Shown: positions 35,471 through 57,267, numbered from the stretch's first letter. The stretch is DNA of 64,000 nt from an uncultured Gammaproteobacteria bacterium (GCA_963793895.1 CAWCBV010000004.1:304704-368703), one strand, 5' to 3'. Notes: a model not told the origin generated them from the sequence alone. A program made the numbers and translations.

Positions 35471-35547
35471 GGAAAGGTAGCTCAGCTGGTTAGAGCACGG
35501 CACTCATAATGCCGGGGTCGAGGGTTCGAGTCCCTCCCTTTCCACCA
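35471..35547 (+). tRNA. tRNA-Met (anticodon CAT, elongator-like)
   Basis: 77 nt. The acceptor stem is ggaaagg/cctttcc. The anticodon stem-loop is cggca-CTCATAA-tgccg. The T-arm is gaggg-TTCGAGT-ccctc and CCA is encoded. Lysidine-modified tRNA-Ile2 cannot be excluded from sequence alone. Confidence 0.9.
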
Positions 35548-35726
35548 CAATTCATGGGGCACGCTTGCGACGTCAGCCCATTTCCTGTTGGTTGTTCGGG
35601 CTGTGAATCCTCGTCAGGGGCCGGTTCGCGGGACGGCACGCCGGTGCAGCTGACACCGGACGCCGCGTGCGATGTTCTCGGCCAACGCGCTGCGGAACTG
35701 CGCGATGGACCGCAGTGACGCCAGGT

Positions 35727-35972
35727 CTAGGCTTTCTTCAAGAGCCGGGTGATCCACACAAGGAGCACCGCACCTATGAAGGCGACGATAATCGAGCCGA
35801 CCATTCCTCCGCCGGGCCAGATACCCAACATTCCGAAAACCCAGCCCCCGACGATGCCGCCCAGGATTCCCAGGATGATGTCAACCAAGACGCCGTAGCC
35901 GCCGCCCTTCATGACCTGGCCTGCAAGCCATCCGGCAATGAGTCCCACGATAATCCAGTACACCAAACCCAT
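35727..35972 (-). CDS. GlsB/YeaQ/YmgE-family (transglycosylase-associated) stress membrane protein
   Basis: The ATG at 35972 has a GGAGGG RBS. The 81-aa product MGLVYWIIVGLIAGWLAGQVMKGGGYG... is the typical Gly-zipper small membrane protein. Confidence 0.85.
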   Translation of the reverse strand: MGLVYWIIVGLIAGWLAGQVMKGGGYGVLVDIILGILGGIVGGWVFGMLGIWPGGGMVGSIIVAFIGAVLLVWITRLLKKA

Positions 35973-36078
35973 AAATCGACCCTCCGTTTTTTGTCTTTTT
36001 GCAAAGCTAGACAGCGTTGCAGTTCCCAGCCCCAGTATCGCACTCCTTTGTGAAAAGGGGTGGACGGAACGCCGACGG

Positions 36079-36615
36079 TCAGCGATAAGACTGTTCGTGC
36101 AGGTCTGCGACATAGGTCAGCGCGCCACCTACGACCCGCGCCGGCGATGTCATCGGATGCACGACGTTGTGTTTAGCATCGAGGATGTGCACGACCTCTA
36201 TGCCGCGCACGCTGAGCGCGTCGGCGATCATCGAGCGATGGCAGCGCCACCAGACCGCTTCTGCGCACATTATTGCGGTGCGCGCCTGAGCCGCCAGGTG
36301 TATGAGCTGGCCCAGCCCCTGCGCGAATTCCGGACTCGACATGTAGTCGGCATAGCCGCGAAACGAGGCATTGCGCCAGGCTGTGTTCGGCGAATCGGGT
36401 GAAACCCGCCGACGGCCGCCCAGCGCAGGCAACCAGTCATAGCCGATGCCGTGTCCGGCGAGCGTCGTCGCAAGTGCTTCCCTGCCGTATTGCGGATATT
36501 TCCGCGAACCGGGGAAGCTGCGCACGTCGGCGATGGTCTCCATGCGGGCTCCGGAGAGCAGGCCGAGGAACTCCTCGATCGCACGCGTGGAGTGCCCGAT
36601 CGTCCAGATTGTCAT
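36079..36615 (-). CDS. DUF488-family protein
   Basis: MTIWTIGHSTRAIEEFLGLL...FPGSRKYPQY matches the DUF488 N-terminal signature. An alternative start at 36645 lies 3 nt after the upstream stop. Confidence 0.75.
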   Translation of the reverse strand: MTIWTIGHSTRAIEEFLGLLSGARMETIADVRSFPGSRKYPQYGREALATTLAGHGIGYDWLPALGGRRRVSPDSPNTAWRNASFRGYADYMSSPEFAQGLGQLIHLAAQARTAIMCAEAVWWRCHRSMIADALSVRGIEVVHILDAKHNVVHPMTSPARVVGGALTYVADLHEQSYR

Positions 36616-36648
36616 CCGCGCTGCTAAAGCCGCTGAGGGTGACATCGG

Positions 36649-36861
36649 TCAGTCGATCTTGTGCAGCGCCCCGTCTTTGTGCATCGCGACGTGGTCGGTT
36701 TTGTCGCTCTTGATCTCGTACTGTGGGTCATCCGCGCTGGCGTGGTGCGTATAACCCTTGTAGTCGGTGTTCTTCTTGTGCACCTTGATGATTTTGCCGC
36801 TGACGTGGCCTGCTTCCGAGTTCCAGCGCACGTGATCGCCTACTTTAAATTTTGTGGTCAT
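36649..36861 (-). CDS. DUF2945 (HVA1/TUDOR-like) small protein
   Basis: 70 aa. KVGDHVRWNSEAGHVSGKIIKVH...DDPQYEIKSDKTDHVAMHK is the typical family pattern. Confidence 0.75.
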   Translation of the reverse strand: MTTKFKVGDHVRWNSEAGHVSGKIIKVHKKNTDYKGYTHHASADDPQYEIKSDKTDHVAMHKDGALHKID

Positions 36862-37215
36862 AGGAATAACTCCTCCCGGAAGGTGAGAACATCAGGGCAG
36901 CAAAGCCTTCGCGCGCGCATAGACATTGTAGATGGTGAACCGGTATTCGCGCAGCACCGTGCAGCTGATCCGGGATCGCGAGTGACGGCTCATGGCCGGT
37001 CAGCGACCGTCGATTTCAACCGACCCACCGACTCATTCGCACCATTGATGATCGTCCGGCTTGCCTGAGCCTCCATCAGAAATGCACTCGGCCGACAACA
37101 ACGGGGTTTACGATGCGCTTACGCTCTGGGAGCAGCTCCGCATCCGCAGACGCGAGAAGTCCCGGTGGCGACGCTCCGGTCGCCGGCCACAACGCCGCCT
37201 GCACTAACGTGTACT

Positions 37216-37704
37216 CTAAGCGCGAGCAGTTCCGCGCCATGCCGCTTCGATGGCGGCGATGTCGATCTTTTTCATTTTCATCATCGCCTCGAACGCGCGC
37301 TTGGCGGCCGCACGGTCGGAGTCGGTCGTTGCGTCCAGCAGCGTCCGCGGGGTGATCTGCCAGGACAAGCCCCATCTGTCCTTGCACCATCCGCACGCGC
37401 TTTCGGTGCCGCCGTTGTTGACGATCGCGTTCCAGTAGCGGTCCGTCTCGGCCTGGTTATCGGTGACGATCTGAAATGAAAAGGCCTCGGAGTGCTTGAA
37501 CGCCGGGCCGCCATTGAGGCCGAGGCAGGGCACTCCAAGTACCGTAAATTCGACCGTGAGCACCTGTCCCTGTTTGCCGGCAGGGTAGTCGCCCGGGGCG
37601 CCGTGGACCGCTATCACGGTGCTGTCCGGAAAGGTCTGAGCGTAGAACCTGGCGGCATCCTCTGCTGTGCCGTCATACCAAAGACAAATCACGTTCTTGG
37701 CCAT
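37216..37704 (-). CDS. VOC-superfamily protein (PhnB / 3-demethylubiquinone-9 3-methyltransferase-like domain)
   Basis: 162 aa. Contains ICLWYDGTAEDAARFYAQTF...GWCKDRWGLSWQI, characteristic of this glyoxalase-fold family. Confidence 0.75.
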   Translation of the reverse strand: MAKNVICLWYDGTAEDAARFYAQTFPDSTVIAVHGAPGDYPAGKQGQVLTVEFTVLGVPCLGLNGGPAFKHSEAFSFQIVTDNQAETDRYWNAIVNNGGTESACGWCKDRWGLSWQITPRTLLDATTDSDRAAAKRAFEAMMKMKKIDIAAIEAAWRGTARA

Positions 37705-37897
37705 CGTCTGTCTCCGTTCGCTCGTCAGAGGGCGACCCGTCTAAGGCTACAACGAAACAGCAACCCGGGATTCGACCGCATTCGGCGGCAGTGCCAAGGC
37801 CGCGCCTGTCCTACAGTGAATTGCGCGCTTTGCCGACTTCCTGAGCGACGACGGAGTGCTCCCATTATGACTTATAGGGTCATCGACGGAGCGACTC

Positions 37898-38107
37898 ATG
37901 AAAACGATGACGTGCAGACAGCTCGGCGGGAAATGCGACCAACCCTTGTCGGCTGGCTCTTGGGAAGAAATGGTGAAGGCCATGACGAAGCACGTCATGG
38001 ACAAGCATCCTGATGTTGCGAAACAAATGGAATCAATGCATAACGAAGATCCAAAGAAATGGGGCAGGGCAATGAAGCCAAAATGGGATGCGGCGCCGGA
38101 AACCTAG
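37898..38107 (+). CDS. DUF1059 small protein
   Basis: 69 aa. MKTMTCRQLGGKCDQPLSAGSWEEMVKAMTKHVMDKHP is the typical DUF1059 pattern. Confidence 0.7.
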   Translation: MKTMTCRQLGGKCDQPLSAGSWEEMVKAMTKHVMDKHPDVAKQMESMHNEDPKKWGRAMKPKWDAAPET

Positions 38108-38141
38108 CGCACTTCCGTGGCTGAACGGAGCCCTGGGCGAC

Positions 38142-38281
38142 AAAGGTAGCTTCGAGCCGATCGATCCACATATGCACATATGCAAGAGTTCGAGCATATT
38201 AAGATCCTATTCGTTGTCGGGTTTGGGCCGATTGTCCGCGACGGACTCGGGTTGAGGGTTCGAGTCCCTCCCTTCCCACCA
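38142..38281 (+). pseudogene. Degenerate, interrupted tRNA-Met-like relic (att copy 1)
   Basis: 38248-38281 matches the tRNA 3' 34 nt with 3 mismatches. 38142-38151 (aaaggtagct) matches the tRNA 5' acceptor/D-arm start. About 95 nt of AT-richer DNA, including a catatgca direct repeat, separates the two pieces. Confidence 0.5.
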
Positions 38282-38463
38282 ATCAGATCAGAGTGATAGC
38301 GGTCGCCGCCGAGATTGGCTGGCCCGCTGTAAGCGTACCGTAAGCGCAGAAGTAGACCTTCTGCCGATCTTGATCACCGAATCCACGTATTCGCGGCTGC
38401 GTTTATAGTGCGCACGACACTCGCGATTCGGGTCGTCAGATACTGCCACCTTATGTGAACGCG

Positions 38464-40509
38464 CTACTGCGGCAGGTTCATCTTCTTGAGTAGTGCCTTG
38501 AAGCGCGGATCGGCGTGCAGGCGATCGAGCAGCAGGTCGACTTTGACCTCTGACAGGCCGCCATCGCGCTGTTGGTAGGCGCGCTCGAGCCACTCGAACG
38601 CCTTGTCCTTCTCGCCGCGCCATGCAAGTGCCTCGGCGACCTGATAGGCGCCATCCGCAGCATGCTTGGCGATCAACTCGTCGAGGGCCTGCTGGGACTC
38701 CTTCGCGTGACCGAGGCTGTGCTCGGCCATGGCGACGTCGGTCAGCCTGAAAAACTCGATACCGATCTTGCGCGCCGTCGCGAGTGCCTCGGCCGCGTTG
38801 CCCTCGAGCAGCCACAGTATGGCCATGTGATGCCCGCCGAAGCTCGACTCCGGATTGATCTCGAGGCAGCGACGCAATGCCTCGTGTGCGGCGGGGTAGT
38901 CTCGGTGGAATGTCAGGTATTGACCAAGGTTCGACCAAGCGATAGCGGACAATGGATCAATCTCCGTCGCCCTTCTTCCTACCGCAATGGCCTCTGGCAA
39001 CCGGCCGAGCCTTTCCAGCAGCGTAGCGTAGCTCCCCTGAACTTTGTCGGACGCGGGATCAAGCGCCAACGCCTTCTCCAAGTCCGCTTCAGCACCGGTC
39101 CAGTCCCAGCTGACGTTCATGCGCAGAACTCCGCGCGACGCATAGCCGTCGGCCTTCTGCGGCGCGAGGATAACGGCCCTCTCGGCGTAAGCCATCGCTT
39201 GCCTTCGGCCTGCTGCATCGCCGGTCGAATCCGCGAGGGTGTACTCCGAGAGAGCAAGACTGGCATAGGCCGCGGCGTAGTCGGAATCGAGTGCGATGGC
39301 TTTTTGGAACGCGTCGATCGCCCGTCGCCAGCCGTCGATGTTGCCTCGACTGTGAAACCGTTTGCCGAGCAGATACTGATTGTAGGCCTCGGTGTTTGAG
39401 CTGCGGTACGCGGCGACGGCCTGCGCCGGTACGAGCTTGGCTTTCAGCACCTCGACCACGGCGGCGGCGATCTCGTCCTGGACCTTGAAGATGTCCTTGA
39501 TGTCCCGGTCGTAGGTTCTTGACCAAAGGTGATAGCCGTTGTCGGCACGGATAAGCTGCACGGTCACCCGGAGCGTGTTGCCAGCCTTCCGCACGCTCCC
39601 TTCGAGAACGTGGGCGACGCGCAGTTTCTGAGCAATGCTCGGGACATCGTCCGCCTTGCCCTTGAAGGCGAACGACGAGGTGCGGGCCGGCACCCGCAGG
39701 TCCTGGACCTGCGCCAGGAGGTCAATGAGTTCCTCGCTCAATCCGTCCGAGAAGTACTCCTGGTCCTTCTTCTCGCTCATGTCGACAAACGGCAGTACCG
39801 CGACGGACTTCTCCGGGATCGCGACCGGTGGGGGCGTGCCGACCTGAGCAGTCGATGACGAGGTCTGCGCATCTGCTGCAGGCCGCTTCGACAGCCACAA
39901 CTTGTCCACCGCAAAGTAGCCGACGCCGATAACCGCGACTGCCGCGATCAGCAGCAGGACACCCGGCGTTGGTCGCGGCGCGGCAAGACTCGGCGCAGGC
40001 AGTCGGGGCGCAGCCCCAGTGGGCGGCACTGCGGGGCCGGCTGGCGATCTGACCTCTCCGGGTGCATGAGCCGCTTCGGGCGACAGCAGCCGCAAGACGC
40101 GCTCAACGAAGGCCGGTCGCGCGTCCCCGTTGTGCAAGCGAGTCCATTGCGCCACGGAGAACGCATCCGGCACATCCGCGTCCGTCTCGGGCGTGTCGTC
40201 GACGCAGACCGGCACGATGAACGGTCGGGTGCGCCCCATCAGGTGCGTGCGCTGATCCGCGAGCCTCCACTCAAGCCTGAAGTATCCTTCCGTCCTCTCC
40301 TGGGTATGGGACGAGATGATCGGGAGGAAGAGCGCGCAGTCCCGTATCTGGTGGCGAATCTTTTGGTCCCAAGCATCGCCGCCCCGAAGGGCGCTCTGGT
40401 CGAACCAGACTTCGATGCCGGCGGCTCGCAGTGTGTCGGCGATACGTCGCGCCGCCTCGGCATCCTGCGAGGCATAGCTCAGGAATACGGCTCTAGCCGG
40501 CTCGGTCAT
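38464..40509 (-). CDS. Transmembrane TIR-domain protein with a periplasmic TolB-N-like (COG5616-type) domain and TPR repeats
   Basis: The TIR_2-like N-terminus is AVFLSYASQDAEAARRIADTLRAAGIEVWFDQ...YFRLEWRLA. One TM follows (GVLLLIAAVAVIGVGYFAV). Then comes VLPFVDMSEKKDQEYFSDGLSEELI...LEGSVRKAGNTLRVTVQLI, followed by TPRs. The ATG at 40509 is preferred; the ORF track extends to 40668. Confidence 0.8.
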   Translation of the reverse strand: MTEPARAVFLSYASQDAEAARRIADTLRAAGIEVWFDQSALRGGDAWDQKIRHQIRDCALFLPIISSHTQERTEGYFRLEWRLADQRTHLMGRTRPFIVPVCVDDTPETDADVPDAFSVAQWTRLHNGDARPAFVERVLRLLSPEAAHAPGEVRSPAGPAVPPTGAAPRLPAPSLAAPRPTPGVLLLIAAVAVIGVGYFAVDKLWLSKRPAADAQTSSSTAQVGTPPPVAIPEKSVAVLPFVDMSEKKDQEYFSDGLSEELIDLLAQVQDLRVPARTSSFAFKGKADDVPSIAQKLRVAHVLEGSVRKAGNTLRVTVQLIRADNGYHLWSRTYDRDIKDIFKVQDEIAAAVVEVLKAKLVPAQAVAAYRSSNTEAYNQYLLGKRFHSRGNIDGWRRAIDAFQKAIALDSDYAAAYASLALSEYTLADSTGDAAGRRQAMAYAERAVILAPQKADGYASRGVLRMNVSWDWTGAEADLEKALALDPASDKVQGSYATLLERLGRLPEAIAVGRRATEIDPLSAIAWSNLGQYLTFHRDYPAAHEALRRCLEINPESSFGGHHMAILWLLEGNAAEALATARKIGIEFFRLTDVAMAEHSLGHAKESQQALDELIAKHAADGAYQVAEALAWRGEKDKAFEWLERAYQQRDGGLSEVKVDLLLDRLHADPRFKALLKKMNLPQ

Positions 40510-41197
40510 CGAGGCGTCGCTCCCTCGGCCGTGGCTCGGGGTCCTTCTAGGGGTGCCGCCGACCTCGCCCGCGAACGTCAGCTTATCCGAATTCGAGTGT
40601 CCGCTCTCGGGCCGGGCGAACGGGTGCTTGGGGTCGACAACGGCCCTAAGCGACAAATCGGCGGTCATCCCGACCGCACCCGGCCATCACCGGGAAGCTC
40701 AGCTGGGGCAAATGTGTGCCGATTGCCGACGTTCCGCGTTGCTATCTACCTGCGAAGCGTCGATCGGTGCGGCTTACGCATCTTACGGCCGGCGCGCTGC
40801 GGGTCCGGCGCTTAGCACAAATGAAAGACACACAACGTAGCCCCTGGCCGAAAGATCCTCTCGGATGCGATCGTGCCTTTGGCGAGCTGCTTGGCTTTCT
40901 TTTTGTGACGGCGATGTTTTAACGCGCGCATAACCCGCAGACTAGCCGGAGTATCCTTAACTGTTCGCGCTGGGTGGCGCTAAAAACACCAACATATCAC
41001 CGTCCCTGGAAGGACTGCCTCGAAGCCGTCACTCGCGGACTGCGAGAGTATTCAGATAGACTCGCCCTATGCGGTTGCGAACTAATCTTGACCCGAGAAT
41101 TGGCTCAATAACACTCACCAACCCGCCGCGATATTGAGCTTGAATTGTGCTCTCGATCGACAAGCGACCGAGGGCAAGAGAGCAGGAGGATAGTGCT

Positions 41198-41946: not shown

Positions 41947-42705
41947 ATGCCTGTCCTTGTCAAATTCTTTGAGTGGTTTGGCGAATTTGGGAGCTTCTGC
42001 GGCCGGGTGGCCCGCACGGGCTTTGTTCCTCCTTACGAGCGGCAGGAATTCGTCTGCCAGCTCGATGAAGTGGGAGCAAGATCGCTGCTGCTCGTGGCCC
42101 TTGCAGGAGCGGCCACTGGAGTGGTTCTTTCGCTCGAGACACGCGACAGCCTCTTGCGGTTTGGGGCCAAGCCATTGCTCCCCGCTGTCATTGTCATTTC
42201 CATCATCAAGGAAAGCGGCCCGATCATCACCGGCTTGATGGCCAGCGGCCGCGTCGGCGCGGGCATCGGTGCCGAATTAGCCGCGATGAAGGTCACGGAA
42301 CAAATCGACGCCATCGAAGCGTCAGCCGTAGATCCATACAAGTACCTGGTCGCCACGCGCGTCCTGGCCTGCGTGTTGATGCTGCCTTTGCTTACATTGG
42401 CGGCGGATTTCTGCGGCGTCCTGATGGGGTGGCTCGCGAACACCCTGGTCGAACCCATCTCCCTGCGCCGTTTCGTACAGGCGGGCTTCAGCAGCATGAC
42501 CTTCAACGACTTCCTGGCTCCGACGTTTAAGACCGCGGTGTTTGGTTTGATTATCGGCCTGGTGTCGTCCTTCGAAGGCATGCGCGCGCAAGGAGGTACA
42601 GAAGGCGTGGAACGCGCGGCGGCCAACTCTGTTGTCTTGTCTTCTATCTTCATCATTCTGGCTGATGTCTTGCTGGTTCGGTTGATTCTGGTGTTCTTCC
42701 CTTGA
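41947..42705 (+). CDS. MlaE-family ABC transporter permease
   Basis: 252 aa. Contains GPIITGLMASGRVGAGIGAELAAMKVTEQIDAIEA, the MlaE/YrbE signature. G+C is visibly lower than in the core. Confidence 0.88.
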   Translation: MPVLVKFFEWFGEFGSFCGRVARTGFVPPYERQEFVCQLDEVGARSLLLVALAGAATGVVLSLETRDSLLRFGAKPLLPAVIVISIIKESGPIITGLMASGRVGAGIGAELAAMKVTEQIDAIEASAVDPYKYLVATRVLACVLMLPLLTLAADFCGVLMGWLANTLVEPISLRRFVQAGFSSMTFNDFLAPTFKTAVFGLIIGLVSSFEGMRAQGGTEGVERAAANSVVLSSIFIILADVLLVRLILVFFP

Positions 42706-42712
42706 GGCAAGG

Positions 42713-43462
42713 ATGAAAACCAACACTGCTGCGCCAGCAATCCAGGTGAAGTCATTGCGCAAGTCATTTGGCGCTCAGGTTGTGTTGAACGCAATCGATC
42801 TGAAGGTAGCGCAGGGAGAGACTTTGGCGGTGCTGGGGCGGAGCGGCACCGGCAAGAGTGTCTTGTTGAAATTGATTGTTGGTCTGCAACAGCCCGACGC
42901 CGGTTCCATTTGCATCCACGGACAGGAGGTCGCCGGTATCGCACTGCAGCGCCTGAATGAAATCCGGCTCAAGATTGGCTTCTTGTTCCAGTCGGCAGCT
43001 CTGTATGACTCCATGACGGTCGCAGAAAACGTGGCCTTTCCGCTGAAAAGGCATAAAAAAATGTCCGACGCCAGCCGCAAGCAGCAAGTAAAAAGGCTGC
43101 TGGCGAGCGTCGGCATGGAGAAGGATTTGGACAAAATGCCGGCGCAGATTTCCGGGGGAATGAAGAAGCGTGTCGGCTTGGCCCGTGCTCTAGCGCTGTC
43201 GCCCGATATCCTGCTTTTTGATGAGCCCACCACCGGGCTGGATCCAATTACTGCCGGAGAAATCAGCGAACTGATACTGGGGTTGCAGAAGGAACACAAA
43301 ATGGCCTCGATTATCGTCACGCACGACGTTCAGGTCGCCCGTGCGGTCTCCGACCGCCTGGCGTTGATGCGCGATGGAAAAATCCTGATCGAGGGAACAT
43401 TTGACCATCTGCATAAGAGTCATGACAGGTTCGTTAGCCGCTTTCTTCAGCCGGCCTCGTAG
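42713..43462 (+). CDS. MlaF-like ABC transporter ATP-binding protein
   Basis: 249 aa with Walker A GRSGTGKS, signature ISGGMKKR and Walker B LLFDEPTTGLD. Confidence 0.9.
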   Translation: MKTNTAAPAIQVKSLRKSFGAQVVLNAIDLKVAQGETLAVLGRSGTGKSVLLKLIVGLQQPDAGSICIHGQEVAGIALQRLNEIRLKIGFLFQSAALYDSMTVAENVAFPLKRHKKMSDASRKQQVKRLLASVGMEKDLDKMPAQISGGMKKRVGLARALALSPDILLFDEPTTGLDPITAGEISELILGLQKEHKMASIIVTHDVQVARAVSDRLALMRDGKILIEGTFDHLHKSHDRFVSRFLQPAS

Positions 43463-48345: not shown

Positions 48346-48407
48346 TTCCTCAACGCGGGACGGGCGTTCGCGGCGCGGCTTGACGAGAGAGATCGCACAG
48401 GAGTCGA

Positions 48408-48680: not shown

Positions 48681-48682
48681 CC

Positions 48683-50059: not shown

Positions 50060-50077
50060 CCCTGCGTTCAAGCTACG

Positions 50078-50773
50078 ATGAAGGTCCAGCGGGCTGCAGT
50101 CGCCGACGCGCTCTCTCAGAGCCGGCTCGCCCGGCTGCCGGCGGATGTTACGGCCGCGCTCATCGAAGAGGCGGTGCTGGTCGACGTACCTGCCGGAGGC
50201 GTTCCAATCCGGCAGGGCCACGACGCCTGGGCGGGGTTACTCGTTAGCGGTCTACTGCGAGCTTTTCATACCACCGTCGATGGCCGGCAGGTCACGGTGC
50301 GCTACGCTCGGACCGGCGAGTTGCTCGCCATCAACACATTGTATGTGCCGCGCGCGGGCGCACTGGGCGTCCAGGCACTGACGGCCTGCCGCATTCTGAT
50401 GATGCGACCCGCAACTGCACGCTCAATCGCCGAGCGCGACCCCCGAGTCGCCAACCTGTTTGCGGAGGAGATCGCGTATCGCTTACTCATGATTGTGAAT
50501 GAGCTGGCCGGCAACACTTTTGGCACCATGCGCCAGCGTGTGGTGCGTCATCTGCTCGACATCGCCGCCGGTGCGTCCGGTCAGAGTCTACCGCTGGTTG
50601 CGCGGCTCACCCAGCAGGCGCTCGCCGACGACGTCGGCTCTGTTCGCGAAGTGGTGGTACGGCTGCTGCGCGAGCTGCGCGACGAAGGACTCATCCGCAC
50701 AGGACGTGACGAGATTGAGATCCTCGACCCGGATCGCCTGCACGCGGAGACGTTTCCGCGCGGGGAGTATTGA
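50078..50773 (+). CDS. Crp/Fnr-family transcriptional regulator
   Basis: 231 aa with a cNMP-binding-like beta-roll and a C-terminal HTH (LTQQALADDVGSVREVVVRLLRELRDEGLI). Confidence 0.8.
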   Translation: MKVQRAAVADALSQSRLARLPADVTAALIEEAVLVDVPAGGVPIRQGHDAWAGLLVSGLLRAFHTTVDGRQVTVRYARTGELLAINTLYVPRAGALGVQALTACRILMMRPATARSIAERDPRVANLFAEEIAYRLLMIVNELAGNTFGTMRQRVVRHLLDIAAGASGQSLPLVARLTQQALADDVGSVREVVVRLLRELRDEGLIRTGRDEIEILDPDRLHAETFPRGEY

Positions 50774-50795
50774 AGGGGCCGCCGCCCAGCCGTCG

Positions 50796-50809
50796 GGAAC
50801 AATTGTTCC
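50796..50809. promoter_or_regulatory. 14-bp perfect palindrome GGAACAATTGTTCC between the Crp-like gene and the oxidase gene
   Basis: The sequence is perfectly self-complementary. It shares GAACA/TGTTC half-sites with the palindromes at 58060-58096. Confidence 0.4.
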
Positions 50810-50883
50810 TCACCGCTGGCGCATCGGTCGCTGAAGCACACTCCGGCCTCGGCTAAAGTGGCCTCGCAAACCCCGGAGGCCCG

Positions 50884-52218
50884 ATGGAACTCATCGAACC
50901 CACGCACGCCGAGTACGACCGTGCCCGCAGAGTCTGGAATGGCGCCATTGACCGCCAGCCCGTGGCGATTGCCCGTGTAGCGAACGGCCGCGAGATCGCC
51001 ACGCTCCTGCGCCAAGCGCGTTCGACCGGCCAGAGCGTGACCGTGCGCGGTGGCGGCCACAGCGCCCCCGGCCACAGTGTTGCCGACGGAGCGTTGCTCA
51101 TCGACCTGTGCCGGATGGCCTCGGTCCAGGTGGATGCGGAGCGCGCTGTCGCGCGCGTGGGCGGGGGCTGCCTCTGGTCGCACGTTGACGCCGCGACGGC
51201 AGCGCACGGCCTTGCCACCACCGGCGGCCTCGTGTCGCACACCGGCGTGGGCGGCCTCACGCTCGGCGGTGGCATCGGCTGGCTGATGCGCAAGTACGGC
51301 CTGACCATCGACAACCTGCTGTCGGCCGAGGTCGTGCTCGCCGACGGCACACCGGTGCGCGCCAGCGAACTGGAGCACCCGGATCTATTCTGGGCGTTGC
51401 GCGGCGGAGGCGGGAACTTTGGCGTCGTCACCGAGTTCGAGTTTCGTCTACATCCCGTGCGCACGGTCATCGCGGGCATGCTCCTCTACCCGGCCAGCCG
51501 TGCCAACGCAATCCTAAGGTTCTATCGTGAGTTCACGGCAACGGCGCCGGACGAGCTCACCACGGTCTTCGCGTTTCTGACCGCGCCGCCTGCCCCGTTT
51601 GTTCCCGCTCCGCTGCAGGGCACGCCGGTCGTCGCGATCGTCGCCTGCTGGGCGGGGGATCTCGAGCGCGGTGCGGCGGCGCTGCGGCCCCTGCACACTT
51701 ATGGCCCGCCGGCCGTCGACCTGCTCGGCGAGATGCCGTACGTCGCGTTGCAGTCCATGCTCGACCCCGGCGCGCCTCATGGCCTGCACTACCACATGAA
51801 GTCGGCCAACTTCGCTGACCTGAGTGACGCAGCGATCGACGACATCGTGGCGGGCGCCGCACGCATGGCGTCGCCGCTGAGCCAGTTGCACCTCCATCAT
51901 CTTGGCGGCGCGATATCGCGCGTGGCCGCCGATGCGACCGCGTACGCGAATCGTGCCGCTGCCTACATCCTCAACGTCATCCCGTCGTGGTCCGACCCCG
52001 CCGATAGCGCGACCAATGTGGATTGGGCGCGCGCGACGTTTGACCGGGCTGCGGTGCATTCGAACGGGTCGGTATACGTGAACTTCCTCGGCGACGAGGG
52101 TCAGGACCGCGTCAAAGCGGCGTTCGGGGCGGACAAGTACGCGCGCCTCGCGAAGATCAAGCGCCAGTACGACCCCGACAACGTGTTTCGCTACAACCAG
52201 AATATTCGACCCGCGTAA
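50884..52218 (+). CDS. FAD-binding (PCMH-type) oxidoreductase with a BBE-like C-terminus
   Basis: 444 aa. Contains VRGGGHS, the FAD_binding_4 pattern, and the C-terminal YDPDNVFRYNQNIRP berberine-bridge-like motif. Confidence 0.85.
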   Translation: MELIEPTHAEYDRARRVWNGAIDRQPVAIARVANGREIATLLRQARSTGQSVTVRGGGHSAPGHSVADGALLIDLCRMASVQVDAERAVARVGGGCLWSHVDAATAAHGLATTGGLVSHTGVGGLTLGGGIGWLMRKYGLTIDNLLSAEVVLADGTPVRASELEHPDLFWALRGGGGNFGVVTEFEFRLHPVRTVIAGMLLYPASRANAILRFYREFTATAPDELTTVFAFLTAPPAPFVPAPLQGTPVVAIVACWAGDLERGAAALRPLHTYGPPAVDLLGEMPYVALQSMLDPGAPHGLHYHMKSANFADLSDAAIDDIVAGAARMASPLSQLHLHHLGGAISRVAADATAYANRAAAYILNVIPSWSDPADSATNVDWARATFDRAAVHSNGSVYVNFLGDEGQDRVKAAFGADKYARLAKIKRQYDPDNVFRYNQNIRPA

Positions 52219-52313
52219 TCGAACGGCGGCGCAGCAAGAAAACAGTCGCGTTACGGCATCTCGGTCGCGGCGCCGATTTCCGCAGCCGCGCGAGACGAAA
52301 AAGGAAGCAAATC

Positions 52314-52856
52314 ATGAAGCATAAGTTCATCGGGGCTGCAGTAGCGGCGGCGTTCGGCGTGACCGGAATTTCGGCGCACGCAGGCTGTACAGACCCAAGG
52401 GAATCAGCCCAACAGGGGTCCTTTCACAAGACTTCCCGTCTGTTGCTTGAGAATTCGATCGCAGGGAGAGGTTCGCAGAACGCAAGCGCCGCCGACAATA
52501 TCGTCGGCACCTGGCACGTGACCTACACCACCGAAGGATCCCCGGGCGGGGAGGCTTTCATTCAGTGGCACAACGACGGCACCGAGTTTGAGAACATCAA
52601 CTTTCCCATCCTGGGCGGAAACATCTGCATGGGTTCATGGAAACCCGTCGATAGAACGCATGTCTTTCGGTCCCACATCGGCTGGCTCTATACGAACGGA
52701 CTCCTGTCCGGATACTTCACCGAGACTGAGACCGATGAAGTTGCGCACCACGGTAACTCGTATAGCGGAATCAACGACACCAAGATCTACGATCTCGACG
52801 GCAACCTACAAGTCGAATTGGCGGGCACGGCGGTAGCTACGCGCATCCCGCCTTAG
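52314..52856 (+). CDS. Secreted hypothetical protein
   Basis: 180 aa with signal peptide MKHKFIGAAVAAAFGVTGISAHA and an AAGGAAG RBS. No family is recognised. Confidence 0.55.
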   Translation: MKHKFIGAAVAAAFGVTGISAHAGCTDPRESAQQGSFHKTSRLLLENSIAGRGSQNASAADNIVGTWHVTYTTEGSPGGEAFIQWHNDGTEFENINFPILGGNICMGSWKPVDRTHVFRSHIGWLYTNGLLSGYFTETETDEVAHHGNSYSGINDTKIYDLDGNLQVELAGTAVATRIPP

Positions 52857-52907
52857 GTGTCGTTTGTCGTGCGGCCGGTCGTGCTATCGAGGAGAGTTTT
52901 GCGTGGC

Positions 52908-52944
52908 AAGGGGTCCGGATTGGTGCTCACAATCTGGACCCCTT
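52908..52944. terminator. Long hairpin between convergent genes
   Basis: A 14-bp stem, aaggggtccggatt / aatctggacccctt, with one G-U pair and a 9-nt loop. There is no clear U-tract on either strand, so terminator function is tentative. Confidence 0.4.
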
Positions 52945-52987
52945 GAAATGAGCCTTGGCACGCCTGTCGCCACGCTAGCGCAAGCCG

Positions 52988-53356
52988 CTAGCGATTCTGG
53001 GACACAAGAGCTGTGGGCAGCGGCGTTTTGTTCTTCGCGTTGAATACGGCGGACAACGCGGGCTGGTTTACCCTAGTCACTCCGTTTGCGATTGCATCAT
53101 GCACGCAGCGAGCTTCATCCGCGTCCGTCTTGAACCAATAGTACGAGCATGCGCCCTGGGCCGCCGCTCGGATGCGCTCGTAGAGCACAAGCGCGCCGGA
53201 CGGGTTCGATATCTTGAGATCCGCAAATTTCACGGTAACGCTGACGGAGCTGCTGGGGTCAGCAGCTGAAACGGCGCTGAAGCTCGAGGCAAGAGCGCTG
53301 AAGATCGCGGTAGCGATAAGGCCCCGAAGGCCGGTGGAGGGGGTCGATGTGTTCAT
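52988..53356 (-). CDS. UrcA-family secreted protein
   Basis: 122 aa with a signal peptide. VKFADLKISNPSGALVLYERIRAAAQGAC...C is the typical UrcA pattern. Confidence 0.7.
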   Translation of the reverse strand: MNTSTPSTGLRGLIATAIFSALASSFSAVSAADPSSSVSVTVKFADLKISNPSGALVLYERIRAAAQGACSYYWFKTDADEARCVHDAIANGVTRVNQPALSAVFNAKNKTPLPTALVSQNR

Positions 53357-53710
53357 GGTCGTCTCCTGGATTGTCGATTGGGCGATAGAGCCGGGGTCGT
53401 TAGGAAGCGGTCCCGCGTCGGTATCCCTTGGATGCCACGCTGAACTTTTGCTGCCTTACCCAAACAGACACGGTCCGTGGATCAAACCCGACATCGGGGG
53501 CGGAAATTTGCGGACGCGGGCCATTTCCAAGTCCGAGCGGGGCTCAGTTCGGACTCATTCCCCTCTCGAAACAGGGGGTTGCCGAGGCCTGGGGGCGGGC
53601 GCGCAATCCTCGCCCTGCCGGGGCGAGTAGTTCGCCGCCATCGCCCATGCGGGCACCGTCAAGTTGGCTAATATCGGACCCGTGCACGTGGCAAGACACT
53701 GGATCAGTAA

Positions 53711-54262
53711 GTGACTCAGCTCACCGCGCTAATAGGCCGCATTCAAGCGGGCGACACTGCGGCGCGCGATGCGCTGTTTGCGGCCGCGTATGACGAGCTG
53801 CACCGGCTGGCACGAGCTCGGTTGCGAGACGGAGGACGCAGCACGATGCTCGACACCACCGCACTCGTACATGAGTCGTACCTGCGGTTCGTGCGTGCGG
53901 GGGAGCTCCGTGCCGAGGACCGCCGGGCGTTCTTTGCGTACGCTTCGCAGGTGATGCGATCAGTGATCGTCAACAGCGTGCGCGAGCGCATCGCGCAGAA
54001 GAGGGGTGGTGACTGGCTGCCGTTGAAGCTATCAACCGAGCTCGCAGCCAGTATCCCCGACCGCGAAGACGAGGTATTACGAGTGCACGAGGCGCTGGAA
54101 CTCCTGGAGAAGGCTGACCCTCGATTGGCGCAGGTGGCGCAGATGCGCTACTTTGGCGGTTACAGCGAGCAGGAAATTGCTGAAACGCTGGACGTCACCG
54201 AACGCACTGTCCAACGCGACTGGGAGAAAGCGCGGCTGATCCTCGCGGCAGCGCTGCGGTGA
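53711..54262 (+). CDS. ECF-type sigma-70 family factor of the Ser/Thr-kinase-linked class
   Basis: 183 aa from a GTG start. Contains LIGRIQAGDTAARDALFAAAYDELHRLARARL...TALVHESYLR...KRGG...MRYFGGYSEQEIAETLDVTERTVQRDWEKAR. This matches the ECF family that lacks an anti-sigma partner and sits next to a kinase. Confidence 0.85.
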   Translation: MTQLTALIGRIQAGDTAARDALFAAAYDELHRLARARLRDGGRSTMLDTTALVHESYLRFVRAGELRAEDRRAFFAYASQVMRSVIVNSVRERIAQKRGGDWLPLKLSTELAASIPDREDEVLRVHEALELLEKADPRLAQVAQMRYFGGYSEQEIAETLDVTERTVQRDWEKARLILAAALR

Positions 54263-54313
54263 GCCATCACGACTGACCGTACGCGGGCCACCTGCCTGTC
54301 GCCTCAAAGATCG

Positions 54314-57010
54314 ATGACACTAACGATTGCTCAGATGTCGGTGATGAGCCGCCTGCTCGATGAGGCGCTGCCGCTCGATGAAGCTGCTCGCCGCGCCTGG
54401 CTTGAGAAGCAATCACCCCGGTATCCGGATCTCGCCCAACACTTGCGCGAAGCGCTGCTGCCGCAAAATTCTCAGGCTGCGTATTCCAAATCATCGTTGA
54501 CGCTGCCGGGGCTCGCATTCGCCCAAGAGGCGAGTGCCGCGCCCGCGAGCGGCCTGCAACCGGGCGCACGGGTGGGCCCGTACGAGTTAATTCGGCTCCT
54601 CGGTGCCGGGGGCATGGCCGAGGTGTGGCTCGCCAGGCGTGCCGACGGTGCCTTCAAGCGCGAGGTGGCTCTGAAGCTTCCGATGAGCAGCCGCCTGCGC
54701 AAGGACCTCGAGCCGCGTTTTGCCAGAGAGCGCGACATTCTGGCGAGCCTCGAGCATCCCCATATCGCGCGTTTCTACGATGCCGGGATCGATCCGAACG
54801 GGTTGCCGTACGTGGCGATGGAGTACGTCCAAGGACAACCGCTGACGGAGTGGTGCGATGCTCAACGTCTCGGCATCCCTGCCCGCCTGGAATTATTCCG
54901 GCAGGTACTCGAAGCCGTGCAATACGCGCACGAAAAACGGGTCATCCACCGTGACCTCAAGCCCTCCAACATTCTGGTGACCGAGTCCCATCAGGTGCGG
55001 CTGCTGGACTTTGGCGTCTCCAGGCTGCTGGAGGCGGAGGAGTCGGACCGGACTCCACTCACGAGTGTTTACGGTCGGGCATTTACGCCGGATTACGCCA
55101 GTCCCGAGTTGCTGCGCGGCGATCCGATCGATGCGCGCAGTGACATCTATTCACTGGGTGTGGTGCTCTACGAGATGCTGACCGGCGTTCGTCCCTACCG
55201 ACTGAAGCGCGCGGCGGCGATCGGAATGCTCGATCAGGCGATCGGCACGGTCGAGGTGAAAAAACCCAGCACGCAGTCTGCGCAGGCCGCGAGCGCTCAC
55301 CGTGGCACCACGCCAGAGAGTTTGACGCGGCAGCTGCGCGGCGATCTGGACGCCATCACGCTCAAGGCACTCGCGAGGGAACCTGCTGAGCGGTATCCGA
55401 GCGCCGCCGCCCTGGCGCAGGATCTACGGCGCTATATCGAGGGAAAACCTATCGAGGCGCGCCCGGCCCGATTCACCGATCGGCTGCGCAAGTTCGTACG
55501 TCGCAATAAGACGGTGGTGGGGGTCACCGCGACGGCAGCCGCAGCAATTCTTGCAACGATCGGATACACGCTACACCGTGAAACTGTAGCCCGGGCAAAG
55601 ATCGCGGCGAGCACAGGCGCTGTATCGGCGCCGTTGGTCGCCGCTTCCCTGTCCCCGACGCACTCGATCGTTGTCCTGCCATTTGTCGATATGAGCGAGA
55701 AGAAGGACCAGGAGTATTTCTCTGACGGCCTGTCGGAGGAGCTGATCGAGCTGCTCGGCAAGACGCCCGGACTGCGGGTCATCCCGCGGACGTCATCCTT
55801 TTACTTCAAGGCAAGGGCGGAAACGCTTGAGACGATTGCCGCGCAGCTGCGTGTCGCGAATGTACTAGAAGGTAGCGTCCGCAAGGCCGGCAATCGACTG
55901 CGAGTCACCGCACAGCTCATTCGCGCGGATACCAGCGAGCAGCTTTGGTCTGAGACCTACGATCGCGACCTGCGTGACGTCTTCAAAGTTCAGGACGAGA
56001 TCGCCGGCGCCGTGGTTTCAGCGCTGCAGATCAAACTCGCCCCCGCTCGGCAAGCAGCTAATTTGCACCGCACGTCGAATCCTGAGGCCCACAATCAGTA
56101 CCTCCTTGGTCGGCAATTCTTCGAACGCGGAACACTCGGCGGCTTTCGGCGCGCCGCCGAAGCCTTCCGTAAGGCCGTCGAACTTGATCCCCGTTACGCC
56201 GCCGCTTACGCCGAACTCGCCATAGCGGAGTCCTTCGTTGCGGATCCCAGCGGTGATGCGGCAGGGCAGCAGCAAGCCCTGGCGGCGGCGGACAAGGCGG
56301 TAGAGCTGGCTCCGGACGATGCCGACGCCTATGCGACGCGCGGCTATATGCGACTTAGGCGCACCTGGGATTGGAGGGGAGCACAGGCGGATCTTGAGAA
56401 GGCGCTGACTTACGATTCGACCAACAGCGCGCTGCAGTGGCTATACGTGACGCTGCTAGCTGACTTCGGCCGGCGGCCTGAGGCGATGGCGGCGGCGAAA
56501 AAGGCAACCGAGCTGGACCCGTTATCGGCCACGGCGTGGCTGGCCCTCGCCTGGAACCTCGCCGACAACCGGCAGTTTGCAGCCGCCCACGAGGCCCTTC
56601 GCCGGGCACTCGAGATCCAACCCGAATCGACTATTCTCCTGGCTTCTCTTGGGGGACTCCAGTTGGATGAGGGCAACGCCACGGAGTCGCTGGCCACGTA
56701 CCGGCAAGTGAGTGATGAGGAAGTTCGTCTGTTCGGCGTCGCGAGGGCCGAGCATACGCTCGGTCACGCCAAAGAGTCGCAACAGGCACTCGATCAGTTT
56801 ATAGCCAAGGCGGGGCAAGCGAAGGCTTACGACATCGCGGAGATCTATGCGTGGCGCGGCGAGAAGGATAAAGCTTTCGAATGGCTGGATCGGGCGTACC
56901 AACAGCACAGTAGCGATCTGTACGGTGTCAGGAGCGATGCGTCTCTCGCGTCGCTTCGCGGCGACGCTCGCTTCGCCGCGCTGCTGAGGAAGATGAACCT
57001 GCCGGAGTGA
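54314..57010 (+). CDS. Transmembrane Ser/Thr protein kinase with a periplasmic TolB-N-like domain and TPR repeats
   Basis: 898 aa. Hanks kinase motifs are present: GAGGMAEVW, VALK, HRDLKPSNILV, DFG, SPE. One TM follows. The sensor half is paralogous to the TIR protein (VLPFVDMSEKKDQEYFSDGLSEELIELL...; C-terminus ...AWRGEKDKAFEWLDRAYQQ...LLRKMNLPE). Confidence 0.9.
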   Translation: MTLTIAQMSVMSRLLDEALPLDEAARRAWLEKQSPRYPDLAQHLREALLPQNSQAAYSKSSLTLPGLAFAQEASAAPASGLQPGARVGPYELIRLLGAGGMAEVWLARRADGAFKREVALKLPMSSRLRKDLEPRFARERDILASLEHPHIARFYDAGIDPNGLPYVAMEYVQGQPLTEWCDAQRLGIPARLELFRQVLEAVQYAHEKRVIHRDLKPSNILVTESHQVRLLDFGVSRLLEAEESDRTPLTSVYGRAFTPDYASPELLRGDPIDARSDIYSLGVVLYEMLTGVRPYRLKRAAAIGMLDQAIGTVEVKKPSTQSAQAASAHRGTTPESLTRQLRGDLDAITLKALAREPAERYPSAAALAQDLRRYIEGKPIEARPARFTDRLRKFVRRNKTVVGVTATAAAAILATIGYTLHRETVARAKIAASTGAVSAPLVAASLSPTHSIVVLPFVDMSEKKDQEYFSDGLSEELIELLGKTPGLRVIPRTSSFYFKARAETLETIAAQLRVANVLEGSVRKAGNRLRVTAQLIRADTSEQLWSETYDRDLRDVFKVQDEIAGAVVSALQIKLAPARQAANLHRTSNPEAHNQYLLGRQFFERGTLGGFRRAAEAFRKAVELDPRYAAAYAELAIAESFVADPSGDAAGQQQALAAADKAVELAPDDADAYATRGYMRLRRTWDWRGAQADLEKALTYDSTNSALQWLYVTLLADFGRRPEAMAAAKKATELDPLSATAWLALAWNLADNRQFAAAHEALRRALEIQPESTILLASLGGLQLDEGNATESLATYRQVSDEEVRLFGVARAEHTLGHAKESQQALDQFIAKAGQAKAYDIAEIYAWRGEKDKAFEWLDRAYQQHSSDLYGVRSDASLASLRGDARFAALLRKMNLPE

Positions 57011-57107
57011 GACTGAGCTGAGCCGCGCTAACCGAATGTCCCTGCGTGCTAGGCGAGGTTCGGTCGAAAGCGGCCGACAAACGCTTCCCGGCCTCTCATG
57101 CGTGGCA

Positions 57108-57266
57108 TGCGGGAGATTTGCGGGAGTCGGTCGTGCTCAGTTGTGCTTCGTGGTGCCAATTGCAACGGGCGCCCCTTGGCAAGTTGTTGAACCTACAGGT
57201 TACCTTGAGCCAATGACTGCGCTCATAATGCCAGGGTCGAGGGTTCGAGTCCCTCCCTTTCCACCA
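57108..57266 (+). repeat. Conserved arm plus tRNA-Met 3'-half repeat (terminal att copy)
   Basis: 57222-57266 matches the last 45 nt of the tRNA with 1 mismatch. It ends 1 nt before the stop codon of the convergent Crp-like gene. Confidence 0.85.
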
Positions 57267-57267
57267 C

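Follow-up and report, generated by a model that had tools for sequence, protein, structure and literature searches.

Five tandem remnants of integrative elements, probably decayed, at the tRNA-Met gene of an uncultured gammaproteobacterium

Downstream of an intact tRNA-Met(CAT) gene in an uncultured gammaproteobacterium lie five same-strand copies of the 3' part of this gene, which raises the question of how the DNA between them was acquired and whether it is still mobile. We analyzed a window of 64 kb, i.e. the whole stretch of DNA considered here and the only part of this genome covered. A single intact tRNA-Met(CAT) gene was recovered by both ARAGORN and Rfam. As the attB target, this gene bounds the array on the left; the layout is as follows:

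35471..35547, + strand: intact tRNA-Met(CAT) (ARAGORN; Rfam tRNA, 73 bits)
38248..38281, + strand: repeat 1, T-arm to CCA, 3 mismatches in 34 nt
46022..46065, + strand: repeat 2, 44 nt without mismatch to the tRNA, anticodon loop to CCA
47583..47627, + strand: repeat 3, 45 nt without mismatch to the tRNA, anticodon loop to CCA
48782..48811, + strand: repeat 4, 30 nt, 1 mismatch, preceded by a 54-nt internal deletion
57222..57266, + strand: repeat 5, 45 nt, 1 mismatch, distal end of the array
57268..58008, - strand: Crp-like regulator gene, flank beyond the array (Pfam)

Using a 30-nt query from the T-arm to CCA with at most 3 mismatches, exactly six matches were found, all on the + strand and ending at 35547, 38281 (2 mismatches), 46065, 47627, 48811 (1 mismatch) and 57266; 100 dinucleotide-preserving shuffles gave none. 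In-register alignment showed that identity to the tRNA begins in the anticodon loop for three copies. The earlier sequence-only reading, which had reported the intact gene, its five direct copies and their lengths and mismatch counts, is confirmed in all these points. For the short repeat 1, a crossover in the T-loop by a different element family fits as well as decay does.

The same reading had taken the Crp-like gene to be the original distal flank of the tRNA. Repeat 5 adjoins the stop of this gene, and the same type of junction is present in two related contigs, L061 (88% identity over 1.75 kb) and L007, in agreement with that view. The left flank is syntenic with contigs L014, L046 and L004. 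Between these conserved outer flanks the content differs from contig to contig, so that comparison with relatives finds the locus variably filled, with the break in synteny and composition that is characteristic of tDNA islands. G+C is 0.54–0.65 across most of the interval vs 0.65–0.72 upstream. Together with the IS3-family remnant listed below, this bears out the lower G+C, accessory genes and IS debris described before. The five cassettes contain:

35548..38247: cargo of cassette 1 (Pfam on ORFs and six-frame Pfam)
35727-36113, - strand: Transgly_assoc, cassette 1 (Pfam)
36079-36645, - strand: DUF488, cassette 1 (Pfam)
36649-36861, - strand: Hva1_TUDOR, cassette 1 (Pfam)
37216-37704, - strand: 3-dmu-9_3-mt/PhnB-like, cassette 1 (Pfam)
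38464..40668, - strand: TIR-TPR protein gene, cassette 2 (Pfam TIR_2 and TPR)
41947..44371, + strand: MlaE, ABC ATPase and MlaD-OmpA transporter genes, cassette 2 (Pfam)
44398..45300, + strand: IS3-family transposase remnant (rve, HTH_21 and HTH_Tnp_1 fragments; Pfam on ORF and six-frame)
46325..47267, - strand: AHSA1/SRPBCC gene and ArsR-type HTH_20 regulator gene, sole cargo of cassette 3 (Pfam)
47628..48707: cassette 4, with a small membrane protein gene at 47959-48345 (+ strand) and a 90-aa ORF at 48408-48680
48947..57010, + strand: cargo of cassette 5 (Pfam; PADLOC), including small secreted ORFs and a 370-aa membrane ORF that matches no family
50078-50773, + strand: Crp-like regulator, cassette 5 (Pfam)
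50884-52218, + strand: FAD/BBE oxidase, cassette 5 (Pfam)
53711-54262, + strand: ECF sigma factor, cassette 5 (Pfam)
54314-57010, + strand: Ser/Thr kinase-TPR protein, cassette 5 (Pfam)

PADLOC matches the TIR-TPR protein at the level of the TIR domain only. A DUF5670 match in the six-frame Pfam search probably belongs to the small membrane protein of cassette 4.

Both sides of the repeats carry conserved arms, which had not been mentioned in the sequence-only reading. Four of the five copies have an attP-type arm (P) of about 110 nt on their upstream side, and three have a second arm (P'), with paired 9-mers, downstream:

45908..46021, + strand: P arm of cassette 2, with GCGGGR at 45909 and 45920, a GTKGTGCY repeat and the near-palindrome TTGCAACGGGCGCTCCTCGGCAA
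47472..47582, + strand: P arm of cassette 3; GTKGTGCY occurs three times, at 47490, 47500 and 47510
48708..48781, + strand: P arm of cassette 4, joined straight to the T-arm through the 54-nt internal deletion
57108..57221, + strand: P arm of cassette 5, conserved
38282..38440, + strand: type A P' arm, left end of cassette 2, with GTAAGCG at 38329 and 38340, 11 nt apart
46066..46264, + strand: type A P' arm, left end of cassette 3, with GTAAGCG at 46111 and 46122
48812..48905, + strand: second P' arm type, at the left end of cassette 5; GCAAGTCCA occurs twice, at 48866 and 48877

The direct repeats of the P arm are helically phased, with two GCGGGR units spaced by 11 nt and two to three GTKGTGCY units spaced by 10 nt. 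In the P' arms the paired 9-mers are 11 nt apart and vary by element type (GTAAGCGCA vs GCAAGTCCA). Judging by this layout, the arms may bind Int and accessory proteins. When 97 post-core flanks were clustered, the left ends of the cassettes fell into at least three different P' families. The arms at 38282 and 46066 fall in one cluster with the P' arms found ahead of the type A integrases of L014 and L017, that at 38282 grouping with 17 other post-core flanks in all; the arm at 48812 clusters with post-core flanks of L027, L039 and L044. The left end of cassette 1 is a singleton. In this cassette we found neither an integrase nor a conserved P arm or other recognisable arms, and its segment 35563-36003 recurs with 93% identity in L056 with no tRNA nearby; being armless and represented there away from a tRNA, cassette 1 is the weaker case for an integrated element.

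No tyrosine or serine recombinase or Xis was detectable in the interval. Pfam searches of 35548-57330, on ORFs and on 210 open six-frame non-genic segments, found no recombinase, and tblastn of the interval with the integrase types A, B and C of relatives gave a best E-value of 0.13. As a positive control, the same Pfam model detects the integrases of the relatives at 1e-25 to 1e-29. Neither a recombinase pseudogene in the interval nor an integrase anywhere in the 64-kb window was found, so that the absence of a recombinase or excisionase from the interval, first noted in the sequence-only reading, also holds for profile searches.

Where integrases belong in such elements can be seen in relatives. 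A pattern search found the P arm in 8 Steroidobacteraceae or gammaproteobacterial MAG contigs and in at least 80 soil metagenome contigs, together at least 88 Steroidobacteraceae-like soil contigs, often as arrays. Among the matches listed, the end of a tRNA-Met 3' half follows the arm at 104–106 nt in about 60 of 88 contigs, and many arm-bearing contigs carry two to three such halves. Tyrosine integrases in the relatives are encoded on the opposite strand, directly after the intact tRNA or a repeat (type A: Phage_integrase and Arm-DNA-bind_3; type B: Phage_integrase; Pfam). Behind the type A P' arm they occur in graded states: 434 aa in L014, about 433 aa with frameshifts in L017, stubs of 123 aa in L033, about 80 aa in L024, L041 and L076 and 37 aa in L032, and nothing in L002, L031 and the window. 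After the P' arm at 38282-38440 no integrase gene was found, and the TIR-TPR gene occupies its position. The P' arm at 46066 is 82% identical to L033 up to 46264, and alignment and translations show its homology to integrase-bearing relatives to stop where the catalytic domain would start. An integrase near the tDNA-proximal end of each island, a further hallmark of tDNA islands, is present in L014, L017, L019, L046 and L074 and missing from the window. The P arms of cassettes 2 and 3 match the right ends of integrase-bearing elements in L017, L074 and L046; for the P' type of cassette 5 no integrase partner was found, though both arms are present.

Taken together, we consider it probable (about 0.75) that five remnants of integrative elements make up 35548-57266 as a tandem accretion array. 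A tyrosine integrase would have recombined the attP of each element with the tRNA-Met 3' half, each insertion restoring the tRNA from the element's copy of the 3' half and displacing the earlier one downstream. As a result of this displacement, every junction would consist of the P arm of the left element, a tRNA 3' half and the P' arm of the right element. Crossovers would have occurred mostly in the anticodon loop, one probably in the T-loop. The integrase genes, which in this element family lie on the opposite strand right after the P' arm, would later have been deleted, leaving cargo and att arms. The order of insertion is one that we infer. That each cassette once had its own integrase we infer from the relatives only, because no stub survives in any of the five. 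The repeats, the arms and the integrases of relatives support the earlier claim that elements integrated serially and site-specifically into the tRNA-Met 3' half and left this locus as their footprint.

The decay of the elements is less easily reconciled with two observations. Three repeats are perfect or near-perfect and both arm types keep their paired repeats, an intactness that exceeds the expectation for old neutral relics and fits sites still in use. Furthermore, one P-arm family serves cassettes with differing P' arms, which is not predicted by a simple model in which one Int N-terminal domain reads both arms. We considered whether the cassettes are active non-autonomous elements, their arm-core-arm junctions being recombined in trans by an integrase of type A, B or C from elsewhere in the genome or from an incoming element. 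If so, cassettes or groups of them could be excised, reshuffled and co-transferred, amounting to functional cis-mobilisation and an integron-like capture platform. An attP-site layout is found at every junction, the integrase-less P' arms retain the two GTAAGCG repeats just as those of integrase-bearing relatives do, and cassettes can be as small as 1.2–1.5 kb. In other bacteria, CIME-ICE tandems are documented to transfer by conjugation (PMC5704250).

Among 41 non-redundant junctions, each with at least 1.5 kb of downstream sequence, 35 lack an integrase, which makes such junctions the majority in the clade; however, integrases are present at 3 of 4 tRNA-proximal vs 3 of 37 distal junctions (Fisher p = 0.007), and passive decay predicts this bias as well as the graded stubs. 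The P arms are 84–97% identical to one another within the window and 78–93% identical to arms of contigs whose flanking genes are only 78–88% identical, but arm identity to L061 (85%) is not above that of nearby intergenic DNA (85.5%). The window holds no integrase in its 64 kb, and among the contigs compared we found no case of the same att-bounded cassette in a different context. Cargo common to several genomes is not bounded by att sites, the segments shared with L083 and L056 ending elsewhere. Cores and arms are often truncated in relatives: the AHSA1/SRPBCC and HTH_20 pair of cassette 3 has an 85% identical counterpart in L052 and L083, with truncated core and arm. These comparisons of sequence, namely the graded loss at a homologous position, the tRNA-proximal bias, the truncated cores and arms and the cargo shared without att boundaries, favour decay. 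Mobilisation in trans is unlikely in our view, and the suggestion of an unusual gene-capture platform at this tRNA is not supported.

A much smaller chance is given to local duplication, with homologous recombination between arm-core units, as the main source of the array's growth. Over about 600 nt, the stretch 48185-48811 in the right part of cassette 4 copies cassette 2's right end (45438-46065) at 93–97% identity, and cassette 4 may have originated by duplication rather than by a separate integration. The TIR-TPR and kinase-TPR genes also have a 1.3-kb paralogous half in common. The five cassettes otherwise share no cargo, however, their left ends belong to several P' families, and bona fide integrases stand at the expected position in relatives; duplication accounts for cassette 4 at most. 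It is hardly credible that arm and tRNA 3' half are repeated for their own sake, as a regulatory element or a functional non-coding RNA. Although about 95 nt are strongly conserved over 60 distinct sequences and the RNAalifold energy is below that of column shuffles, the fold is weak (about -9 kcal/mol for a length of 114 nt) and equal for the two strands (z = -5.5 and -7.5), which is how a DNA palindrome behaves. Rfam matches nothing but the tRNA, the conserved blocks consist of phased direct repeats of the kind typical of arm sites that bind protein, and the unit always lies at the expected attR position.

Like integron cassette arrays, the locus lines up small cargo units, most of them promoterless-looking, with a recombination site repeated between them. 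An integron was nevertheless rejected: there is no intI or other tyrosine recombinase, attI or Pc in the window, what repeats is not a folded attC but a tRNA 3' half flanked by long arms, and the cassettes are multi-gene with both orientations. Closer are the tandem tDNA islands catalogued by Islander (Hudson et al. 2015, PMC4383910), in which a regenerated tDNA and displaced 3' fragments likewise mark island ends. Islander recognises anticodon-centred and T-stem crossover classes as well as tandem arrays, and lists 125 arrays of at least 2 islands and 4 of at least 3 (PMC4383910). Because a tandem member is accepted only with its own integrase (PMC4383910), an integrase-less array of five units would be filtered out.

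The sequence-only reading had set decay through loss of every int gene against CIME-like cassettes. Our comparative data favour the former, but the alternatives are not truly opposed, since the term CIME denotes, by definition, a decayed element whose integration genes are lost and whose attL and attR are kept, arising by integration, decay and further integration (PMC5704250). Structurally the cassettes are remnants of this cis-mobilizable type: they have no integration or transfer genes, and for cassettes 2 and 3 attL and attR are related to those of integrase-bearing elements. As with streptococcal CIMEs that accrete with ICEs or IMEs, the definition fits; there, mobilisation of CIME-ICE tandems was demonstrated (PMC5704250, citing Pavlovic et al. 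2004 and Bellanger et al. 2011), whereas the present cassettes have no functional resident partner visible in the window, and form a longer array of five units in a soil gammaproteobacterial host.

A close precedent is provided by the ssrA-specific islands of Dehalococcoides, which stand downstream of the tmRNA gene in tandem arrays (McMurdie et al. 2011, PMC3146451). In both systems several tandem islands of strain-variable content are each bounded by a direct repeat of a t(m)RNA 3' end with a conserved motif just upstream, and the reverse-strand integration module beside attL resembles the arrangement in our relatives. The target there is ssrA rather than tRNA-Met, the repeat measures 20 bp rather than 30–45 nt, the recombinase is the serine recombinase DsiB rather than several tyrosine integrase types as in our relatives, and the arms described here are far longer (about 110 and 190 nt). 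About half of the Dehalococcoides islands (15) are without an integration module, and the authors proposed these to be cis-mobilizable or fixed remnants (PMC3146451); in our window none of the five cassettes keeps an integrase. We therefore regard the tRNA-Met array as most probably a known kind of decayed island array rather than a new gene-capture system.

The window contains one tRNA-Met(CAT) gene at 35471-35547 on the forward strand (ARAGORN; Rfam agrees with 73 bits). Sliding 20-mers of this gene, with two mismatches allowed, matched five further sites on the same strand, which were then aligned in register with the tRNA.

Copies of the tRNA-Met 3' part
38248-38281, forward strand: repeat 1, T-arm onward, three mismatches in 34 nt
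46022-46065, forward strand: repeat 2, identical to the tRNA from anticodon loop to CCA
47583-47627, forward strand: repeat 3, identical to the tRNA from anticodon loop to CCA
48782-48811, forward strand: repeat 4, last 30 nt of the tRNA, one mismatch
57222-57266, forward strand: repeat 5, one base different from the tRNA

The 30-nt segment from T-arm to CCA has six matches with at most three mismatches, compared to zero in 100 dinucleotide-preserving shuffles. By 20-mer search, alignment and shuffles alike, the sequence-only reading had described the tRNA and its five repeats accurately. The repeats divide the array (35548-57266) into cassettes 1-5. Most of it has a G+C of 0.54-0.65, versus 0.65-0.72 upstream.

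Directly 5' of each of repeats 2-5 we found a conserved P arm of ~110 nt that had previously gone unnoticed, and further arms (P') lie 3' of the repeats.

Arms beside the repeats
45908-46021: P arm of cassette 2, precedes repeat 2
47472-47582: P arm of cassette 3, precedes repeat 3
48708-48781: P arm of cassette 4, precedes repeat 4, joined to the T-arm by a 54-nt internal deletion
57108-57221: P arm of cassette 5, precedes repeat 5
38282-38440: P' arm, 3' of repeat 1, GTAAGCG twice, 11 nt apart
46066-46264: P' arm, 3' of repeat 2, GTAAGCG twice, 11 nt apart
From 48812: P' arm of another kind, 3' of repeat 4, GCAAGTCCA twice, 11 nt apart

The four P arms share 84-97% pairwise identity and contain GCGGGR twice at 11-nt spacing, GTKGTGCY up to three times at 10-nt spacing and the near-palindrome TTGCAACGGGCGCCCCTCGGCAA. 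Homology links the P' arms at 38282-38440 and 46066-46264. Among all four P' arms (from 38282, 46066, 47628 and 48812) at least three families can be told apart: one with GTAAGCGCA pairs, one with GCAAGTCCA pairs and a singleton. The P arms of the four cassettes form one family, from which the P' 9-mers are absent. Since arms are found on both sides of the repeats, each junction appears to be laid out as P arm, core (the tRNA-Met 3' half) and P' arm, as expected of tandem integrated elements of one superfamily.

Cargo of the cassettes and genes of the distal flank
Cassette 1 (Pfam): Transgly_assoc, DUF488, Hva1_TUDOR, 3-dmu-9_3-mt/PhnB-like protein
Cassette 2 (Pfam): TIR-TPR protein, MlaE, ABC ATPase, MlaD-OmpA, IS3 rve remnant, small membrane protein
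Cassette 3 (Pfam): AHSA1/SRPBCC protein and ArsR-type regulator, nothing else
Cassette 4: small membrane protein and 90-aa ORF
Cassette 5 (Pfam): 370-aa membrane ORF (no family), Crp-like regulator, FAD/BBE oxidase, ECF sigma factor, Ser/Thr kinase-TPR protein
Past 57266 (Pfam): two Crp-like genes, bPH_2 protein, NAGLU glycosidase, sugar transporter

Cassette 4 repeats the right end of cassette 2 in its own right 600 nt, with 93-97% identity. Within this duplicated segment, just 5' of both arms, lie the two copies of the small membrane protein gene (...SFSYTKETHQLTLGPIDLSV...GKGKR; 45413-45727 and 47959-48345). A C-terminal half of ~1.3 kb is common to the TIR-TPR gene, leftmost in cassette 2, and the kinase-TPR gene, rightmost in cassette 5. 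The shared stretches (38466-39798, reverse strand, and 55673-57008, forward strand) have 66% nucleotide identity, are inverted relative to each other and both end in ...LLKKMNLPQ/E, so that a single sensor or repeat module is joined to N-terminal effector domains of two kinds. PADLOC gave defence-like matches, at domain level only (TIR to Aga/SAVED-TIR models, the kinase to PD-T4-6, DUF488 to PDC-M45B), for cargo at 36079-36645, 38464-40668 and 53711-57010. The ECF sigma factor (PF07638) lies directly 5' of the kinase, and the two look more like a signalling pair. Exact-match look-ups of six proteins from the window found none of them on record.

We compared the locus with related contigs (L numbers below). 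The arm pattern AATTGCAACGGGCNCNCCTNGGCA occurs in eight species-representative contigs, all of them Steroidobacteraceae or unclassified gammaproteobacterial soil MAGs, and in at least 80 soil metagenome contigs. In ~60 of the 88 loci listed a tRNA-Met 3' half follows it and ends 104-106 nt further on, while in the remaining ones the core is mostly truncated or diverged. Many of these 88 carry two or three tRNA-Met 3' halves, and four have an intact tRNA. On the left, the flank of the window (32.5-35.5 kb) shares synteny and 78-83% identity with L014, L046 and L004. On the right, the stretch that begins at the last arm and includes both Crp genes is 88% identical to L061 over 1.75 kb, and L007 shows the same core-to-Crp junction; both support the earlier proposal of the Crp gene as native distal flank. 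Between these conserved outer flanks the content is wholly different among the window and its relatives. The tRNA-Met site is thus differently filled in relatives; empty sites did not appear in this sample, which was chosen for having the arm.

Past the last repeat (57267-64000) G+C stays at 0.58-0.63, versus 0.65-0.72 before 35 kb; this flank is nonetheless conserved in L061 and L007. By analogy with Dehalococcoides, where the region past the last ssrA repeat was proposed as an older, fixed island, the same may hold here.

Three of the related contigs contain an insertion of ~870 nt with terminal inverted repeats (GATATGGCC...GGCCATATTG) that parts the arm from the core (L005 ~2610-3480, L017 ~8170-9040, L055 ~300-1170). 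L006 lacks it at the corresponding position, which suggests a small insertion element of the non-autonomous kind. In some tRNA-Met 3' halves the last bases are ...TTTCCATTC instead of ...TTTCCACCA, followed by the common flank AACCAGTTACGCTATCC (core ends in arm-forward orientation: L005 3519, L007 1454, L017 9084, L055 1214). They may mark the terminus of a different element family, or else the tRNA end that the chromosome originally had, with no CCA encoded. Just past its arm, L054 (OBLT010160468.1) carries the Illumina adapter AGATCGGAAGAGCACACGTCTGAACTCCAGTCAC, an assembly artefact in a public metagenome record.

In relatives, tyrosine integrases are located directly 3' of the intact tRNA or a repeat, on the opposite strand and with their 3' end toward the core. 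They were recovered by motif search and tblastn; Pfam analysis of 66 ORFs from the first eight loci had shown no integrase among the 25 of 54 families listed.

Tyrosine integrase types in related contigs
Type A: Phage_integrase and Arm-DNA-bind_3; complete in L014, near-complete and cut by the contig end in L074, frameshifted in L017
Type B: Phage_integrase; complete in L019, begins 7 nt past a core
Type C: frameshifted in L046, fragments in L088 and L006

For L017, L074 and L046 the integrase lies at the left end and the conserved arm at the right end of one element. When 97 post-core flanks were clustered, the two GTAAGCG arms of the window fell into the largest class (18 members), which also has the arms in front of the type A integrases of L014 and L017. 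Behind arms of this class the integrase measures 434 aa, ~433 aa with frameshifts, 123, ~80 or 37 aa, or is absent. The homology of the window to integrase-bearing relatives ends at ~46264, where the catalytic domain would start, and an AHSA1 gene comes next. Only 6 of 41 non-redundant junctions, each with at least 1.5 kb downstream, have an integrase homologue within 2 kb: 3 of 4 tRNA-proximal versus 3 of 37 distal ones (Fisher p = 0.007). Such a bias is expected if the intact tRNA is where new elements come in, with older ones decaying as they are displaced outward. No integrase partner was found in relatives for the GCAAGTCCA-type P' arm. Searching IMG/VR with the type A integrase revealed relatives of up to 56% identity, and the two closest loci (L089 and L090) have no tRNA-Met core or arm nearby.

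The stretch encoding the C-terminus of the type C integrase (...SRKSPA...), at ~2230-2250 in L046 and near the contig end of L088, reads as GCGGGAGATTTGCGGGAG in reverse complement. Since the conserved P arm begins with this paired motif too, type C elements have it flanking the core on either side.

Within the array itself, the sequence-only reading had seen neither recombinase nor excisionase. Pfam found no recombinase among all plausible ORFs. We then translated all stretches outside confidently assigned genes in six frames (210 stop-free segments of at least 35 aa, 13.9 thousand residues); with E up to 0.1 these gave no Phage_integrase, Resolvase, Recombinase or Xis/AlpA, only IS3 fragments (rve, HTH_21, HTH_Tnp_1), DUF1059, DUF5670 and noise. 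The DUF5670 match probably belongs to the small membrane protein. Using tblastn, the three integrase types had a best E of 0.13 against 35001-58000, i.e. noise only, and zero matches at E up to 1e-3 against the whole window. The same Pfam model was checked on the integrases of the relatives, which it scores at 1e-25 to 1e-29 (positive control). The absence is real at the sensitivity available, at which alternative frames within intact genes were covered by tblastn alone and remnants below ~30 aa could be missed.

Do the integrase-less cassettes still move? They could form a standing pool of small att-bounded cassettes at the Steroidobacteraceae tRNA-Met that is still serviced in trans, which we consider unlikely. 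It is equally doubtful that, through the common P arm, any of several integrases, whether co-resident or incoming, could excise the cassettes, change their order and export them, making the locus a tRNA-anchored, trans-serviced capture platform. A small chance of retained trans service is allowed because elements that differ in P' arm and integrase type share an unvarying P arm, a combination that is unexplained if one Int N-terminal domain reads both arms, and because the sites are intact, with perfect cores and paired arm repeats. In contrast, shared cargo in relatives does not end at such sites. The gene pair of cassette 3 recurs at 85% identity and in the same orientation in L052 and L083, but there the left core is truncated and the right arm is reduced to its last ~40 nt; L043 has the two genes inverted. 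L056 and L083 contain counterparts to parts of cassettes 1 and 4 (93-94% identity) whose ends lack att sites. Between the window and L061 the arms are 85% identical, no more than neighboring intergenic sequence (85.5%) or codon position 3 (72-86%), although these arms may not be orthologous since the cassettes left of them are unrelated. In none of these comparisons did an integrase-less cassette prove mobile.

An RNA function of the arm was rejected: Rfam matches only the tRNA, and for 47 arm-core units RNAalifold predicts a weak arm fold (about -9 kcal/mol) whose gain over column shuffles is alike on both strands (z = -5.5 and -7.5), as palindromic DNA would show and a strand-specific RNA would not. 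Likeness to an integron fails on every defining integron feature.

Repeats, arms and the relatives' integrases together support the proposed footprint of serial integration at tRNA-Met. Most likely, elements accreted at this gene and their integrase genes would then have been deleted, leaving CIME-type remnants (cis-mobilizable elements: decayed, without integration genes, keeping attL and attR). Such remnants are the norm in the Steroidobacteraceae-like clade, and the array is a clear but ordinary case of island accretion and decay. The sequence-only reading had opposed a decayed array to CIME-like cassettes. Both descriptions apply, and as integration, decay and further integration form the cycle that builds tandems (PMC5704250), they are two names for one known thing.

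In soil gammaproteobacteria of a little-studied clade, the locus records tRNA-Met as an integration hotspot where long arrays lack integrases. The ~110-nt arm, the 45-nt core and the paired P' 9-mers are usable markers and can bound islands overlooked by integrase-dependent island finders. Islander recognises tandem tDNA islands and requires an integrase in every member (PMC4383910), so that arrays like this one are invisible to it. If the cassettes were mobilisable in trans, the concept of CIMEs and accretion would reach the Proteobacteria and a larger scale. The closest published analogue is the ssrA island array of Dehalococcoides, in which a 20-bp repeat taken from the 3' end of the tmRNA bounds each of many tandem islands; every repeat has a conserved motif 5' of it, the integration module is located on the reverse strand beside attL, and 15 islands without this module were proposed to be cis-mobilizable or fixed (PMC3146451).
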